Positions 31,230-38,257 of a stretch of DNA of 64,000 nt are shown in pieces (the first letter of the stretch is position 1; each line of letters begins with the position of its first letter). The DNA lies in assembly GCA_013414795.1 (NCBI GenBank), contig CP058732.1, positions 1,275,950-1,339,949 of the forward strand, written 5' to 3'. The notes under the pieces are model-generated. The model saw only the letters and a list, made by a program, of their open reading frames with translations. It was not told the DNA's origin and did no database searches. A program made the position numbers and the translations under genes. This DNA is from Candidatus Kapaibacterium sp. GTDB taxonomy: Bacteria; Bacteroidota; Ignavibacteria; Kapaibacteriales; UBA2268.

Positions 31230-33434
31230 TTATTTGCTTGCTGTTGCAATTCTTGGCATAAAAATCTTTTGTTGTGCTTGGGGACCGTGACAGGTGTAGC
31301 ATTCTTGCTTTTGGAGCAACTTATCAATTCCACCAGGATGAATAAAATTCAAGCCCGTGGATGAGACAAACTCCTCGCCGCTTGGCGGTTTCTGGTAATT
31401 TATTATGTGACAAGCATTGCAATCGTTTGTTATTACTTTGCCAGTGGGGCTGACGTGTTTACCATCGTGGCAACGAAAACATCCAGGGCTATATAAATGT
31501 CCAATGTTTACTGGATAATTTTTCCAATTCGCTTTCATATCGGGGAAGTAGTTTCGCATATAGATATTGTAAAGTTCGTGTACGGCTTTTTCGATTTCTT
31601 TTTCTTTTTGAACTAAAACATCTGGGTAATATTCTTTATAAAAACCGTAGATGTAATTCTTGATATTCTCGAAAGCTGTGTTTCGGGACCTTACGTAATT
31701 TTCCAGAACTTGCACGCCGATACTCTTTATGTATGGCAAAGTTTTGTCAATTTTGCCAGAGGACAGGAAGAAGTTGATGGTTTGGTTTGGTTGTTTGAAT
31801 ACGTGAGAAGGTCGATTATGGCAATCGATGCAATCAAAGCGTCGAAGTTCATCCTTTGGTGGGGTTTTAGTTTTACTTTCAAATTTAAAAGAAGTGTCGA
31901 TGTAAACAGTTTCCTCGCCGGTAATAAGAGAGCGTGATTTTACCCAAGGAATTTTTTGCCTTGTTCTGTCAGCAGGCCAATAGGTTATTTCGTTCGCAAG
32001 GTACATATGCCAGTGGATTCCATCATTATTTCCAGTTTCTGGGCTACCACCACCGACTTTTATTAGCATTGAAATTTGGTATTCAGAGTTCTTTTCGTCG
32101 GAAGTGAAGAAATCGTACCGCTTTCTTTTCTCGCTGTAAAAGTGTTTTGGCCAATGACATTGTTCACAAGTTTCTTGCGAAGGCCGAAGATTTTCTACTG
32201 GTGTTGGAATTGGTTTGGGATATTTATTTAAAATTGTTGCAAACACTTGATATGTACCAGAAAGTTTGGAGCGAACAAACCAATCCGCACCAGGTCCAAT
32301 GTGGCATTTCACGCAACCAACACGGGAGTGGGGCGAGTCTTTGTATGCAACGTATTCCGGCTCCATAACTTTGTGGCAAACCTCTCCGCAAAATTGGTCA
32401 GAATCTGTGTATTCGTATGCTTTGTATGTGCCGAAAGAAGAGAAAATGAGTAAAAGAAGCCCGCTCACTGAAAAAACAATAGTTGCAACTTGATGCTTGG
32501 GGTTGTTGAGGTCTATTACAGGAAGTTGTCGTTTAGCACCTTTTGCACTTAAAATTCTTCGGTTTTCTTTTAAAGCGCCAAATATAACTAATATCAAGCC
32601 AAAGATTACAAAAGTGGGTAACACAATAAATGTTACTATACCAAGGTAGGGATTTGGATTTTCAGAGAATAATTCAACAATTGTCAAAAAAACGATAATT
32701 ACAAAAGAAAAAATAGAAATTAATGCACCAGCGAGTGTGGTTGGATTGTAGAACACCAAAGGCAATAACTTTTTCTTTTTGTATGGCTTAGTAGGTCTTA
32801 TATAAACTTGATGATGTTCTTCAAATGCAAGTTTCCAACCCGTAATCATTGATTTATATAATTCACTTAGGGTTTGGCCAGTTGTTCCTAAATATATGTG
32901 GACGAACATAAATAGGCTAAGGATAAATCCAGTAATTGTATGGAGAAGAGCCATAGGCCAAACTCCGCCAAGCCCAAGGAATTCGTCTGGGGCAAGTTCG
33001 GGGAACATCAACAACCAACCAGTAACAATAATTAAGGGCATAAAGAAGCCCATAATGAAAAAGTAGGTAATTTGTTGTAATGGATTAAATTTCTGTTCTG
33101 GGGAAGTTTCGAATGGATGGGGTTCGCCAATGAAAATACCAAGTAAATAATATCGCAATTGTATATAAATTCGGTCAAATAACCCTTTTAGTTTGGGAAT
33201 GTAATGTTTATAGTTTTTTGTTGTGAGGCTTTTGATGAAAAAAAACAAATAATTTAAAGAAAGCAGTATTCCACTTATATTATGAATTAATATAGAAATT
33301 CTAAATGGAATAAGCCCTGATTTTGGGTCGGAATAATGAATACTCAAACCGGAAGCAATTAACAAAAGGAATAACAGTGCGTTAGTCCAATGCCAGAATC
33401 TCAACCAAAACGGATATAAAAAAATTTTTTTCAT
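31230..33434 (-). CDS. Fusion protein: dihaem-type cytochrome b (b561/FdnI/HydC-like, 4 TM) + 3 TM + NapC/NirT-like multihaem cytochrome c domain
   Basis: 734 aa. N-terminus FWLRFWHWTNALLFLLLIASGLSIHY...LLHTITG...VHIYLG (Ni_hydr_CYTB-like His pattern). Then NapC-type CGEVCHKVMEPEYVAYKDSPHSRVGCVKCH. Six CxxCH motifs (CVKCH, CEQCH, CIDCH, CFRCH, CNACH, CYTCH) plus one CX3CH (CGEVCH). Confidence 0.8.
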   Translation of the reverse strand: MKKIFLYPFWLRFWHWTNALLFLLLIASGLSIHYSDPKSGLIPFRISILIHNISGILLSLNYLFFFIKSLTTKNYKHYIPKLKGLFDRIYIQLRYYLLGIFIGEPHPFETSPEQKFNPLQQITYFFIMGFFMPLIIVTGWLLMFPELAPDEFLGLGGVWPMALLHTITGFILSLFMFVHIYLGTTGQTLSELYKSMITGWKLAFEEHHQVYIRPTKPYKKKKLLPLVFYNPTTLAGALISIFSFVIIVFLTIVELFSENPNPYLGIVTFIVLPTFVIFGLILVIFGALKENRRILSAKGAKRQLPVIDLNNPKHQVATIVFSVSGLLLLIFSSFGTYKAYEYTDSDQFCGEVCHKVMEPEYVAYKDSPHSRVGCVKCHIGPGADWFVRSKLSGTYQVFATILNKYPKPIPTPVENLRPSQETCEQCHWPKHFYSEKRKRYDFFTSDEKNSEYQISMLIKVGGGSPETGNNDGIHWHMYLANEITYWPADRTRQKIPWVKSRSLITGEETVYIDTSFKFESKTKTPPKDELRRFDCIDCHNRPSHVFKQPNQTINFFLSSGKIDKTLPYIKSIGVQVLENYVRSRNTAFENIKNYIYGFYKEYYPDVLVQKEKEIEKAVHELYNIYMRNYFPDMKANWKNYPVNIGHLYSPGCFRCHDGKHVSPTGKVITNDCNACHIINYQKPPSGEEFVSSTGLNFIHPGGIDKLLQKQECYTCHGPQAQQKIFMPRIATASK

Positions 33435-33466
33435 AAATAATCGCTACTTTTTGTTAATAACAAAAA

Positions 33467-37167: not shown

Positions 37168-37180
37168 ATTCATCAAACAA

Positions 37181-38257
37181 TTATTGCAATGCATTCAAAG
37201 TGTTAACCAAAAGTGCTTTGGTGTATTTGTAATTGTGAATACCATAGCTTCGGTCCTTGGCTACGAGCAGATAATTCAAAACTGCACCTGCTTCGAGCGA
37301 AGAGAATTTCTTTGGTCTATTATTGGGTAAAAGAATGTATTCGCTTAAAACATGTTTTCCATCTGTATTTCTTGAAACATCGAGCAAACCTCGGTCAATA
37401 AGTTTTTGACGAAGTTCTGCAATTAGGTTTTTGATTTCAGTGACTTTTCCATCGATGTCGAATTTCGTGGCTCCGGGATGGCAATTCGCTTGGGCACAAG
37501 AGGCAACGTGTTCAACCTCTTGACCTTCGGACTCGTAGGTCATCTTGAATGTATGACCACCGGCAAAGGCACCAAAAGGTGTTGCCATATGGCAAGTAAT
37601 ACATCCATCCTTAATCATTGCTTTATGTGGATTGGAGACTTGATAACTTGCGGGTCCAGGAATTTCATATCCACCAACTCCAGCATATATGTTAGCGTTT
37701 ACTCCATAATGTGGTCCCCAACGGAAATTGGTTACGTTAATACTGTCCCCACCAACAACGGGCATTGGTGATACTGGACGTGCTTGGTGGCATTTTGCAC
37801 AGAGATTGCCTTCGCCGAAGTCCATTGTTTGACCACCGTGGCGGAATTTAACTGGTGCAGTGTATGTCAAGGCAAAGTCTGTCGAATCATATTTGGTGTG
37901 AACATAATGGCAAGTTCGGCAATTCGGTCCCGTTGGATTAGGTATTACGGCTAAAGTAGTATCAAGGTTGGTTGTAAGCGATTCGCGAAAACCTTCGTGA
38001 GTGTGGCAAACTGCGCATTGTGTTCGATTTGCGGTTCCAAAATTTTCACCAAGATAGTGTAGAGAATTGTGGAATTGCATTTGTTTTGCAAGCAAGAAAC
38101 TCGATGATTCGTGGCAAACGCCGCAGACTGCTGTTCCGGGTTCCCCGTCTTTTCCATCTTTACCCGGAGGCCCAGCAGGTCCTTCTGGTCCTGTACAGGC
38201 TACGATAGTAAGTGCTAATGCAAGCACTAAGGCAAAAACATTGTAAAAGCGTTTCAT
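37181..38257 (-). CDS. Lipoprotein multihaem c-type cytochrome with collagen-like tether
   Basis: ATG 38257 has a GGAGGG SD. Lipobox LTIVAC, then GPEGPAGPPGKDGKDGEPG ((Gly-X-Y)x6). Five CxxCH motifs (CGVCH, CAVCH, CRTCH, CAKCH, CITCH) plus one CX4CH (CAQANCH). Confidence 0.85.
   Translation of the reverse strand: MKRFYNVFALVLALALTIVACTGPEGPAGPPGKDGKDGEPGTAVCGVCHESSSFLLAKQMQFHNSLHYLGENFGTANRTQCAVCHTHEGFRESLTTNLDTTLAVIPNPTGPNCRTCHYVHTKYDSTDFALTYTAPVKFRHGGQTMDFGEGNLCAKCHQARPVSPMPVVGGDSINVTNFRWGPHYGVNANIYAGVGGYEIPGPASYQVSNPHKAMIKDGCITCHMATPFGAFAGGHTFKMTYESEGQEVEHVASCAQANCHPGATKFDIDGKVTEIKNLIAELRQKLIDRGLLDVSRNTDGKHVLSEYILLPNNRPKKFSSLEAGAVLNYLLVAKDRSYGIHNYKYTKALLVNTLNALQ

Follow-up and report, generated by a model that had tools for sequence, protein, structure and literature searches.

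Few routes are known by which electrons cross the outer membrane of Gram-negative bacteria, namely large barrels that enclose multihaem cytochromes (Mtr, Pcc) and the monohaem fused cytochrome-porin Cyc2. By their published definition, Cyc2 proteins are at least 365 aa long and combine a signal peptide and one CXXCH near the N-terminus with a 16-strand porin similar to OprO/OprP; the motif AXPXFAR[Q/K][T/Y] stands upstream of the CXXCH and PXL four residues after it. In 2021, 1,593 sequences had been assigned to the family (Keffer et al. 2021, PMC8406198). At the inner membrane of Geobacter, CbcA carries seven haems and a C-terminal transmembrane (TM) helix that contributes a His, and its partner CbcB, encoded after cbcA, is a four-TM dihaem cytochrome b (10.1101/2021.04.15.440034); ImcH is an NrfH-like protein of 507 aa with three TM helices and seven haems (10.1101/2023.05.03.539133). 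The authors of both studies found homologues in Bacteroidetes/Ignavibacteriae and proposed them as markers of extracellular electron transfer (10.1101/2021.04.15.440034, 10.1101/2023.05.03.539133), and general surveys of Ignavibacteria mention only Geobacter-like pcc or "Cyc2-like" genes. Here, we analyzed a 64-kb window, the whole stretch of DNA under study, from an uncultured Candidatus Kapaibacterium sp. (Kapaibacteria/Ignavibacteria) with a hot-spring-type genome. The window holds a cluster of six genes, G1–G6. Its predicted inner-membrane half is a fused variant of known modules, and its predicted outer-membrane end pairs a haem-bearing porin with a Rieske lipoprotein.

The six open reading frames (ORFs) all lie on the minus strand, and their coordinates were confirmed as follows:

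G1, 37181-38257, minus strand: hexahaem lipoprotein of 358 aa with an OcwA-like fold
G2, 35983-37167, minus strand: fused monohaem cytochrome-porin of 394 aa
G3, 35469-35969, minus strand: Rieske [2Fe-2S] lipoprotein of 166 aa, exported by twin-arginine translocation (Tat)
G4, 35033-35431, minus strand: small monohaem c-type cytochrome (CNTCH) of 132 aa
G5, 33467-34957, minus strand: 13-haem c-type cytochrome of 496 aa with a C-terminal TM helix
G6, 31230-33434, minus strand: cytochrome b fused to a heptahaem module, 734 aa
G6 N-terminal domain (aa 1-215), 32790-33434, minus strand: four-TM dihaem cytochrome b
G6 C-terminal part (aa 224-734), 31230-32765, minus strand: three TM helices and seven haem motifs

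From G1 to G6, the genes are separated by 13, 13, 37, 75, and 32 nt. An initial annotation, made from the DNA letters alone, had described these co-directional ORFs and gaps as a complete electron conduit, and both were reproduced here. So was its haem count: the products carry 5, 1, 0, 1, 13, and 6 CxxCH motifs in the same order, 26 in all, together with a CX4CH (CAQANCH) in G1 and a CX3CH (CGEVCH) in G6. Residue-shuffled versions of the six proteins contained a mean of 0.1 CxxCH (maximum 2), and the window has none in its other ORFs of 150 aa or more. Homologue alignments supported the shorter starts of G1 and G2. A consensus scan returned nine terminator-like sites compared with 6.7 ± 2.8 in shuffled sequence, and the largest gap, the 75 nt between G4 and G5, holds a weak terminator-like hairpin. 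Internal promoters predicted by consensus scan were no better than those in shuffled sequence, the promoter model being ill-suited to this phylum.

We then examined the cluster in relatives. A scan with a G2 profile, using one genome per species, identified 79 loci (labeled by L numbers below), nearly all of them from Kapaibacteria/Ignavibacteria and related metagenome-assembled genomes (MAGs). All six genes were matched in 24 of these, mostly in the same order and with G2 identity down to 36-40%. More than 20 species-level genomes retain the G1–G6 order, down to ~40% identity, with flanks that change beyond the closest relatives. Within the set, the haem motifs, the Rieske ligands, the Tat motif, His471 of G5, and the b-haem His residues of G6 are invariant or nearly so. 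The six genes thus form a conserved unit whose products span the inner membrane, the periplasm, and the outer membrane, as the initial annotation had proposed. It had also named a consistent link to a catalytic enzyme in relatives as a finding that would speak against a conduit; neither a molybdoenzyme, a copper oxidase nor any other catalytic gene recurred beside the cluster in the relatives' loci, where the flanks vary. Many MAGs titled "uncultured Hyphomicrobiales bacterium ... binchicken" (L002, L005, L009, L012, L024, and others) carry the cluster at 50-82% identity. These titles look like placeholders and were not used as taxonomy, the loci being clearly of the Kapaibacteria/Ignavibacteria type; many MAG titles proved unreliable.

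G2 carries a hydrophobic N-terminus (signal peptide) followed by a single CSACH at aa 33-37, which lies in the haem-site motif ARPQYSILQTYGTK-CSACH (nt 37057-37110). The signatures N-x-Q-G-G-G-x-R, D-D-H-T, and C-terminal Q-L-H-x-[FY]-Y are invariant in its family; in G2 itself, the DDHT loop is encoded at nt 36622-36633 and the protein ends in QLHLYY. An AlphaFold2 (AF2) model built with 32 homologues had 16 long strands (pLDDT 83, pTM 0.82), and Foldseek placed OprP (2o4v) first, then OmpU, and OprO (4rjw) fourth. The beta-barrel postulated by the initial annotation is therefore backed by a confident 16-strand prediction, porin fold matches, and an N-terminal haem motif. At the sequence level, G2 had no match in Pfam, NCBIfam, or PDB searches, and distant family members gave only sporadic weak matches to porin families.

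Whether G2 is a Cyc2 protein is a separate question. It has the signal peptide, the single CXXCH, the length of at least 365 aa, and the 16-strand OprO/OprP-like barrel of the published definition. The two motifs of that definition are missing. In place of AXPXFAR[Q/K][T/Y], G2 reads A-R-P-Q-Y-S-I-L-Q, which keeps only the A, the P, one aromatic, and one small residue, and P-x-F-A-R-[QK]-[TY] occurred in none of the 216 G2-family proteins inspected. Likewise, V-N-V-Q-G-G-G-V-R (family consensus x-N-x-Q-G-G-G-x-R) stands after the haem His where PXL would be expected. The wider family consensus, A-L-P-R-F-[AS]-L-x-T-G-x-x-CxxCH, resembles the Cyc2 motif apart from the Arg, making a distant common origin of G2 and Cyc2 plausible. 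Because an exhaustive search with the G2 profile gave 395 cluster representatives against 1,593 known Cyc2 sequences, the bulk of Cyc2 probably lies beyond its reach. The label "Cyc2-like" in the initial annotation holds for architecture; G2, which lacks the published motifs, is not assigned to the Cyc2 family. Searches elsewhere added little: a metagenome scan with the back-translated Cyc2 motif (5-residue spacing) gave 15 random, non-coding-like matches, viral contigs (3-residue spacing) gave none, and tblastn of a distant G2-family member against plasmids had no matches. A word-indexed profile search with distant G2-family members returned 15 unnamed proteins.

The most constant neighbor of the barrel gene is the Rieske gene G3, which adjoins G2 in 57 of 80 loci. 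G3 scored 31.3 bits against the Pfam Rieske model PF00355 (cut-off 20.3) and carries the cluster ligands CPH (aa 99-101, nt 35661-35675) and CPKH (aa 118-121, nt 35607-35618); the ligand boxes and the Tat motif (TRREFLK in G3, nt 35922-35942) are kept across 57 loci. The disulfide cysteines of the C-x-H-x-x-C and C-x-C-H type are missing in G3 and its close relatives (CPHQGV...CPKHF). They are present in most distant members of the family and have been lost in the clade of the window. The same clade lacks the Ser/Tyr hydrogen-bond donors. A disulfide and such donors raise the redox potential of Rieske centers. The closest solved relative by sequence is AioB, the Rieske subunit of arsenite oxidase, with a weak match (E ~0.01-0.1); both proteins have a Tat signal, and box II reads CPKHFAEF in G3 and CPGHFTEF in AioB (8rtl). 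Some AioB proteins also lack the disulfide. G3 differs from AioB in being lipidated, and neither AioA nor another molybdoenzyme nor a bc-type cytochrome b partner was found next to it in the 80 loci, where its constant neighbor is the G2 barrel gene.

The initial annotation had taken G3 for a soluble periplasmic protein. The lipobox (LTSC) after the Tat signal instead makes it a lipoprotein, and 49 of the 56 G3-family members with a recognizable Tat motif share this arrangement. The other targeting signals in that annotation, the lipobox of G1, the hydrophobic N-terminus of G2, the Tat signal of G3, and the TM segments of G5 and G6, were all recovered. Directly after the lipidated Cys, G3 continues with a sequence resembling the Bacteroidota lipoprotein export signal (LES): LTSC-EKDES (aa 35-43, nt 35841-35867). 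The LES optimum is C-X-K-(D/E)2-X, and it suffices for surface delivery in Capnocytophaga (PMC5080379). G3 conforms to this optimum and to the pattern C-x-[KRQ]-[DE]2, and members from the Fibrobacterota-Chlorobiota-Bacteroidota (FCB) group generally read C-E-[KRQT]-[DN]-E, the window protein having C-E-K-D-E-S. Among 135 predicted lipoproteins encoded in the loci, LES-like motifs occurred in 21 of 50 G3 proteins under the strict definition and 32 of 50 under a relaxed one, in 3 of 15 c7 proteins, and in none of 33 G1 homologues or 34 other predicted lipoproteins. Non-FCB homologues of G3 (L100, L101) have the lipobox and lack the K-D-E. Since the C-E-K-D-E of G3 matches a surface-export signal, its Rieske cluster may be exposed at the cell surface as an entry or exit point for electrons, a specific prediction from the lipoprotein motif.

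Variant loci showed that the outer-membrane genes recur in other combinations, G2 being nearly always flanked by small redox proteins. Some carry G1, G2, a monohaem c7 lipoprotein, and G4 without G3, G5, and G6; others carry a c7 gene, G2, a small TM protein, a YceI-like protein, and G3 without G1 and G4–G6. The YceI-like periplasmic protein (PF04264) lies between the barrel and Rieske genes in L041, L044, L045, L056-L058, and L060-L064, and likewise in L066, L067, L070, L073, and L079. It is usually joined by a gene for a small TM protein of ~100 aa, and one possibility is that these proteins bind lipid or quinone. L034 contains a tandem duplication (~6600-15500) of two full G1–G2–G3 triplets with no G4–G6 nearby. 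Beyond these phyla, L100 from a "Deltaproteobacteria" MAG (4365-7272) encodes YceI, a 111-aa TM protein, a Rieske protein, and a G2-like protein, and in L101 from a Myxococcales MAG (5510-7206) the called ranges of a Rieske gene and a G2-like gene overlap by one base. The G2–Rieske pair thus extends beyond the FCB group. We tentatively propose, as the less probable outcome, that G2 and G3 constitute an unrecognized multi-phylum outer-membrane redox module in which the FCB Rieske protein would be flipped to the surface by its LES to serve as the site of electron exchange.

We next turned to the inner-membrane end. G5 has a signal peptide and a C-terminal TM helix (aa 456-474, nt 33536-33592) whose His471 is invariant in 32 sequences; the "13-haem wire" of the initial annotation is a membrane-anchored partner of a cytochrome b and not a free wire. 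The 7-TM cytochrome b/NapC-like fusion that had been proposed for G6 was borne out by four plus three TM-like segments and by matches to both domain types. Its b domain matched Pfam Ni_hydr_CYTB (PF01292, 1.2e-25) and the NCBIfam PhsC model (2.2e-49), with His15, His51, His165, and His179 invariant in 21 sequences. Its C-terminal part matched Pfam Cytochrom_NNT (1.4e-8) and NCBIfam NrfH (1e-11), with NrfH 2j7a_C aligning to aa 326-433, and its heptahaem portion comprises one CX3CH and six CxxCH. Every haem motif of both G5 and G6 is invariant among the homologues aligned.

A related cluster from the Bacteroidales MAG JACZJL010000098.1 (L095, 4544-10664; partly L098) has these inner parts unfused and a different barrel. 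It encodes a c7-like monohaem lipoprotein, a DUF5777 "membrane bound beta barrel", a monohaem c-type cytochrome, a 7-haem cytochrome with a C-terminal TM helix, a 217-aa PhsC-like cytochrome b, a G1 homologue, and a 500-aa NapC/NirT-like protein with three TM helices and seven haems. G6 aa 2-216 are 40% identical to the 217-aa cytochrome b (3e-54), and aa 224-716 are 39% identical over 499 aa to the 500-aa protein (5e-132). These matches to separate genes indicate that G6 is a gene fusion. Similarly, the 7-haem protein, whose gene immediately precedes that of the cytochrome b, shares 33% identity (1e-37) with G5 aa 246-476, indicating that G5 is an N-terminally extended version of that subunit. 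Kapaibacteria-type and Bacteroidales-type clusters thus have their inner parts in common and differ in the barrel, G2 plus Rieske in the one and DUF5777 plus c7 in the other, which fits G2 and G3 as the outer-membrane module of a modular system. Kinship between G2 and its Bacteroidales stand-in was rejected (hhalign probability 1.4%). The fusion is not universal: in L022, L029, L036, and L037 the G6 homologue is a cytochrome b only (250-290 aa), so the CbcBA-like pair appears to be the core and the ImcH-like part an addition. An extra G5-related cytochrome of ~940 aa with 18-19 CxxCH adjoins the G5/G6 genes in L021, L024, and L031, directly downstream of G6 in the latter two.

This architecture closely parallels Geobacter sulfurreducens CbcBA (10.1101/2021.04.15.440034). 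In both, a multihaem c-type cytochrome with a His-bearing C-terminal TM helix is encoded before a four-TM dihaem cytochrome b that is "thiosulfate reductase-like", the G6 gene starting 32 nt after G5, and for both a role as menaquinol oxidase in extracellular electron transfer is proposed. The Kapaibacterium module differs in having 13 haems in G5 where CbcA has seven, four invariant His in the b domain where CbcB has three, a cytochrome b fused to a further heptahaem module, and no sigma-54/BccR-type regulator near the cluster in the window flanks. That further module is in turn built like ImcH (10.1101/2023.05.03.539133), itself reported as widespread in Bacteroidota and Ignavibacteriae, with three N-terminal TM helices, a periplasmic domain of ~375-400 aa with seven haem motifs, and likeness to NapC/NirT/NrfH at the TM helix and first haems. 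It departs from ImcH in its position behind a cytochrome b and in a CX3CH followed by an invariant Met357 (CGEVCHKVM), which is nearer to the CxxCHxM of NrfH than to the His/Gln ligation of haem 1 described for ImcH, which has a conserved Gln, Lys, and Tyr. Judging from architecture and homology, G5 and G6 would together act as a quinol:cytochrome oxidoreductase. The inner-membrane half, as predicted from these comparisons, is of a known kind, a fused variant of known modules.

Two cytochromes would bridge the halves. G1 has the lipobox IVAC with an invariant Cys21, six invariant haem motifs, and a collagen-like GPxG tether of ~20 residues (aa 23-41, nt 38135-38191). Its family comprises more than 859 proteins annotated as "hypothetical" across the FCB group, including Bacteroidales, Latescibacterota, and Gemmatimonadota-like MAGs, with Pfam domains MtrC/MtrF_II-IV, Cytochrome_C7, and sometimes Collagen. 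The best PDB fold match of the G1 model (pLDDT 89) was OcwA, the nonahaem cytochrome of Thermincola potens (6i5b; E 2.5e-6, probability 1.0, TMq 0.48), and NrfA-type nitrite reductases matched weakly (probability 0.2-0.47). G1 has six haem motifs against the nine of OcwA, is ~130 aa shorter and ~20% identical, and is a Gram-negative lipoprotein with a collagen-like tether. OcwA is regarded as a terminal surface reductase for extracellular acceptors. The six motifs of G1 are accompanied by only five further invariant His, so one haem may be His/Met-ligated or five-coordinate; neither CxxCK nor another known active-site signature was found. The initial annotation had noticed no catalytic subunit. 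For neighboring genes this stands, since no linked catalytic gene was found in relatives; for the cluster itself it cannot be asserted, because the fold of G1 is OcwA/NrfA-superfamily-like.

G4 carries its CNTCH behind an N-terminal signal or anchor. No Met is conserved in its family alignment, and KKHP is invariant (KKHPVAYKG in the window, nt 35111-35137), so G4 is probably bis-His ligated, with a potential below that of ordinary class I cytochromes c. Bis-His ligation of haem usually means low potential. L028 has three copies of G4 and L017 two.

Taken together, we read the six genes, with a confidence that is about evenly balanced, as a trans-envelope conduit between the menaquinone pool and a partner at or outside the outer membrane, with a weak preference for outward flow. 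A conduit of this sort is a kind already known. Judging from the homology of the quinone module, menaquinol would be oxidized, or menaquinone reduced, at G6, whose four-TM dihaem cytochrome b would pair with the TM helix of G5 as CbcB does with CbcA; the ImcH-like, NrfH-type module with its three TM helices and seven haems would give G6 two possible quinone sites. Electrons would run along the ~20 c-haems of G5 and G6 into the periplasm and be relayed to G4 and the tethered hexahaem G1. Since the 16-strand barrel of G2 leaves too little room for a multihaem protein, its own haem at the N-terminus would act as the relay across the outer membrane, as the predicted fold suggests. The Rieske lipoprotein G3 might be reached next, its pairing with G2 being evident from synteny. 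Read outward, the system would let the cell respire anaerobically with an acceptor of moderate to high potential that is extracellular or dissolved.

We agree with the initial annotation that the direction of flow is not readable from sequence; several observations nonetheless favor the outward one. The inner-membrane homologues are menaquinol oxidases in Geobacter, and the conserved operon includes the quinone module. G1 is OcwA-like, and G4 and most haems are likely bis-His. The Rieske protein of the window clade has neither the disulfide nor the hydrogen-bond donors. In addition, no autotrophy is known in the lineage. Against the outward conduit stand the following points. A Rieske centre usually has a rather high potential, which is odd in a chain leaving menaquinol, and Cyc2, the one fused cytochrome-porin that has been characterized, is an Fe(II) oxidase and so runs the other way. 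The likeness of G5 and G6 to Geobacter CbcBA and ImcH rests on architecture, the literature, and the intermediate Bacteroidales cluster, whose unfused pair is of a sort that the CbcBA authors count as homologous. The G2–Rieske pair often occurs without G5/G6 nearby (type C/D loci) and is thus independent of this particular quinone module. As for a surface position of G3, the LES has a demonstrated function in Bacteroidia and Flavobacteriia only, and a folded, cluster-bearing Tat substrate would need to cross the outer membrane.

The best-surviving alternative keeps the same conduit and reverses it, and we regard it as a serious though clearly less probable reading. Electrons would be taken up from an extracellular donor, be it dissolved Fe(II), humics, a cathode, or a reduced mineral. 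Oxidation of Fe(II) would take place at the G2 haem or the Rieske cluster, and electrons would pass through G4, G1, G5, and G6 to menaquinone; alternatively, they would leave this path at G4 or at c7-type cytochromes for a terminal oxidase whose gene lies elsewhere. The Cyc2-like architecture of G2 (signal peptide, N-terminal CxxCH, 16-strand OprO/OprP-like barrel, 394 aa) agrees with uptake, as does the family's N-terminal A-x-P-x-[FY]-[AS], which resembles the first two-thirds of the Cyc2 motif, although neither G2 nor any of the 216 family proteins inspected has FAR[Q/K][T/Y] or PXL and the bulk of Cyc2 was probably not reached by the G2 profile. Rieske centers are generally high-potential, and most G3 relatives retain the disulfide cysteines typical of the higher-potential bc-/AioB-type proteins; the window clade, however, lacks both the disulfide and the Ser/Tyr donors, which with a probably bis-His G4 indicates lower potentials. 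G2 and its Rieske partner often stand with a monohaem lipoprotein cytochrome only and no dedicated quinone module, like Cyc2 with Cyc1, and MAGs of Ignavibacteriaceae and Bacteroidetes have been reported to carry Cyc2-like genes. In the window, by contrast, the quinone module consists of homologues of quinol oxidases, and no oxidase, RuBisCO, or other autotrophy gene is present.

An unlikely alternative is respiration of a soluble substrate, in which G1 would be the catalytic reductase, G5/G6 its quinol dehydrogenase, and G2 a substrate porin whose haem and Rieske partner serve in sensing or an accessory role. The G1 model matches OcwA and, weakly, NrfA-type enzymes, the ligand count leaves room for one His/Met-ligated or five-coordinate haem, and the G1 homologue in L095 sits between the cytochrome b and NapC/NirT-like genes, where a catalytic subunit would be. 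G1 nevertheless lacks CxxCK and other known active-site signatures and is a lipoprotein on a long tether; its fold relative OcwA is regarded as acting on extracellular acceptors. A barrel gene, moreover, always accompanies the set, and the G2–Rieske pair is conserved in many loci without G1. Finally, that G1–G4 and G5–G6 are two independent neighboring systems, an outer-membrane one and an inner-membrane quinol oxidoreductase with other partners, is highly improbable: each half is found alone (G1–G2–c7–G4 loci; G2–YceI–Rieske loci) and the largest gap with its weak hairpin falls at the G4–G5 boundary, but the six-gene order outlasts changing flanks in more than 20 species-level genomes, a comparable complete set, with another barrel gene, forms one cluster in Bacteroidales, and terminator-like sites show no excess over shuffled sequence.

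The rest of the window consists of housekeeping genes and large cargo genes of the type IX secretion system (T9SS), with no other respiratory genes. Housekeeping genes, T9SS cargo, an OmpA-like gene, and a Xer-type recombinase flank the cluster. The gene for the Xer-type tyrosine recombinase (30300-31220, minus strand) begins 9 nt after G6, an adjacency kept in close relatives and L023. On the other side, three large genes diverge from the cluster (38584-51801, plus strand), encoding a 1674-aa Gly-rich protein with Ig-like repeats, a 711-aa OmpA-family protein with a beta-barrel domain, and a 1978-aa beta-propeller/beta-helix/Ig protein; an OmpA-like gene also lies beside the cluster in the distant loci L012, L016, L049, L044, and L052. 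A 1427-aa T9SS cargo gene (22260-26543, plus strand; IgGFc-binding-like, Ig-like domains, Por_Secre_tail) shows a local rise in GC to 0.48 at 24001-26000, with several long antisense ORFs, probably owing to Gly/Ala-rich repeats. WD40 beta-propeller proteins are encoded at 14580-15611 and 59205-63011 (both minus strand), the larger (1268 aa) with a type IX C-terminal sorting domain. An Fe/Mn superoxide dismutase (51924-52649, plus strand) has an N-terminal extension of ~41 residues ahead of its SOD domain, which may be an export signal.

If the joint surface reading of G2 and G3 were true, G3 would be the first known cell-surface Rieske iron-sulfur protein. Full-text literature searches found nothing on lipidated or extracellular Rieske proteins, on this cluster (including Kapabacteria multihaem proteins with a porin), or on DUF5777, and the word "Rieske" does not occur in the Cyc2 papers searched for it. 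The pairing of a haem-porin with a Tat-exported Rieske lipoprotein, possibly surface-exposed, thus appears undescribed in the literature searched. Kapaibacteria, Ignavibacteria, and other FCB bacteria are often met in hot-spring mats, sediments, and bioelectrochemical systems and have hardly been cultured; in these groups, the pairing would provide a testable marker of extracellular electron exchange. The CbcB–ImcH fusion is of separate interest, the two oxidases serving different redox-potential windows in Geobacter.

Compared with known systems, the statement in the initial annotation that the cluster matches no described module set gives way at the inner membrane, where the CbcA/CbcB and ImcH architectures are recognizable, and appears to stand for the outer-membrane end. 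With Cyc2 of Acidithiobacillus, Mariprofundus, and Gallionellaceae (PMC8406198), G2 shares a signal peptide, an N-terminal CxxCH, and a 16-strand barrel in ~400 aa, the best structural matches (OprP 2o4v and OprO 4rjw), and adjoining genes for small periplasmic redox proteins; it differs in its partner, a Tat-exported Rieske lipoprotein. With MtrCAB and Geobacter Pcc, the cluster shares the joint encoding of a multihaem periplasm-facing protein, an outer-membrane barrel, and an outer redox lipoprotein. The MtrB barrel has 26 strands. G2, with 16 and the size of OprP, falls short of the at least 20 strands taken as the criterion for a sheath and so cannot enclose a multihaem protein; it carries a haem of its own, and its candidate surface partner is a [2Fe-2S] Rieske protein in place of a decahaem cytochrome. 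Here the operon would connect the pair straight to homologues of all the inner-membrane parts employed by Geobacter. A conserved pair of haem-porin and Rieske lipoprotein would represent a third design beside the Mtr/Pcc and Cyc2 routes, one that gives an iron-sulfur cluster a role at or beyond the outer membrane.

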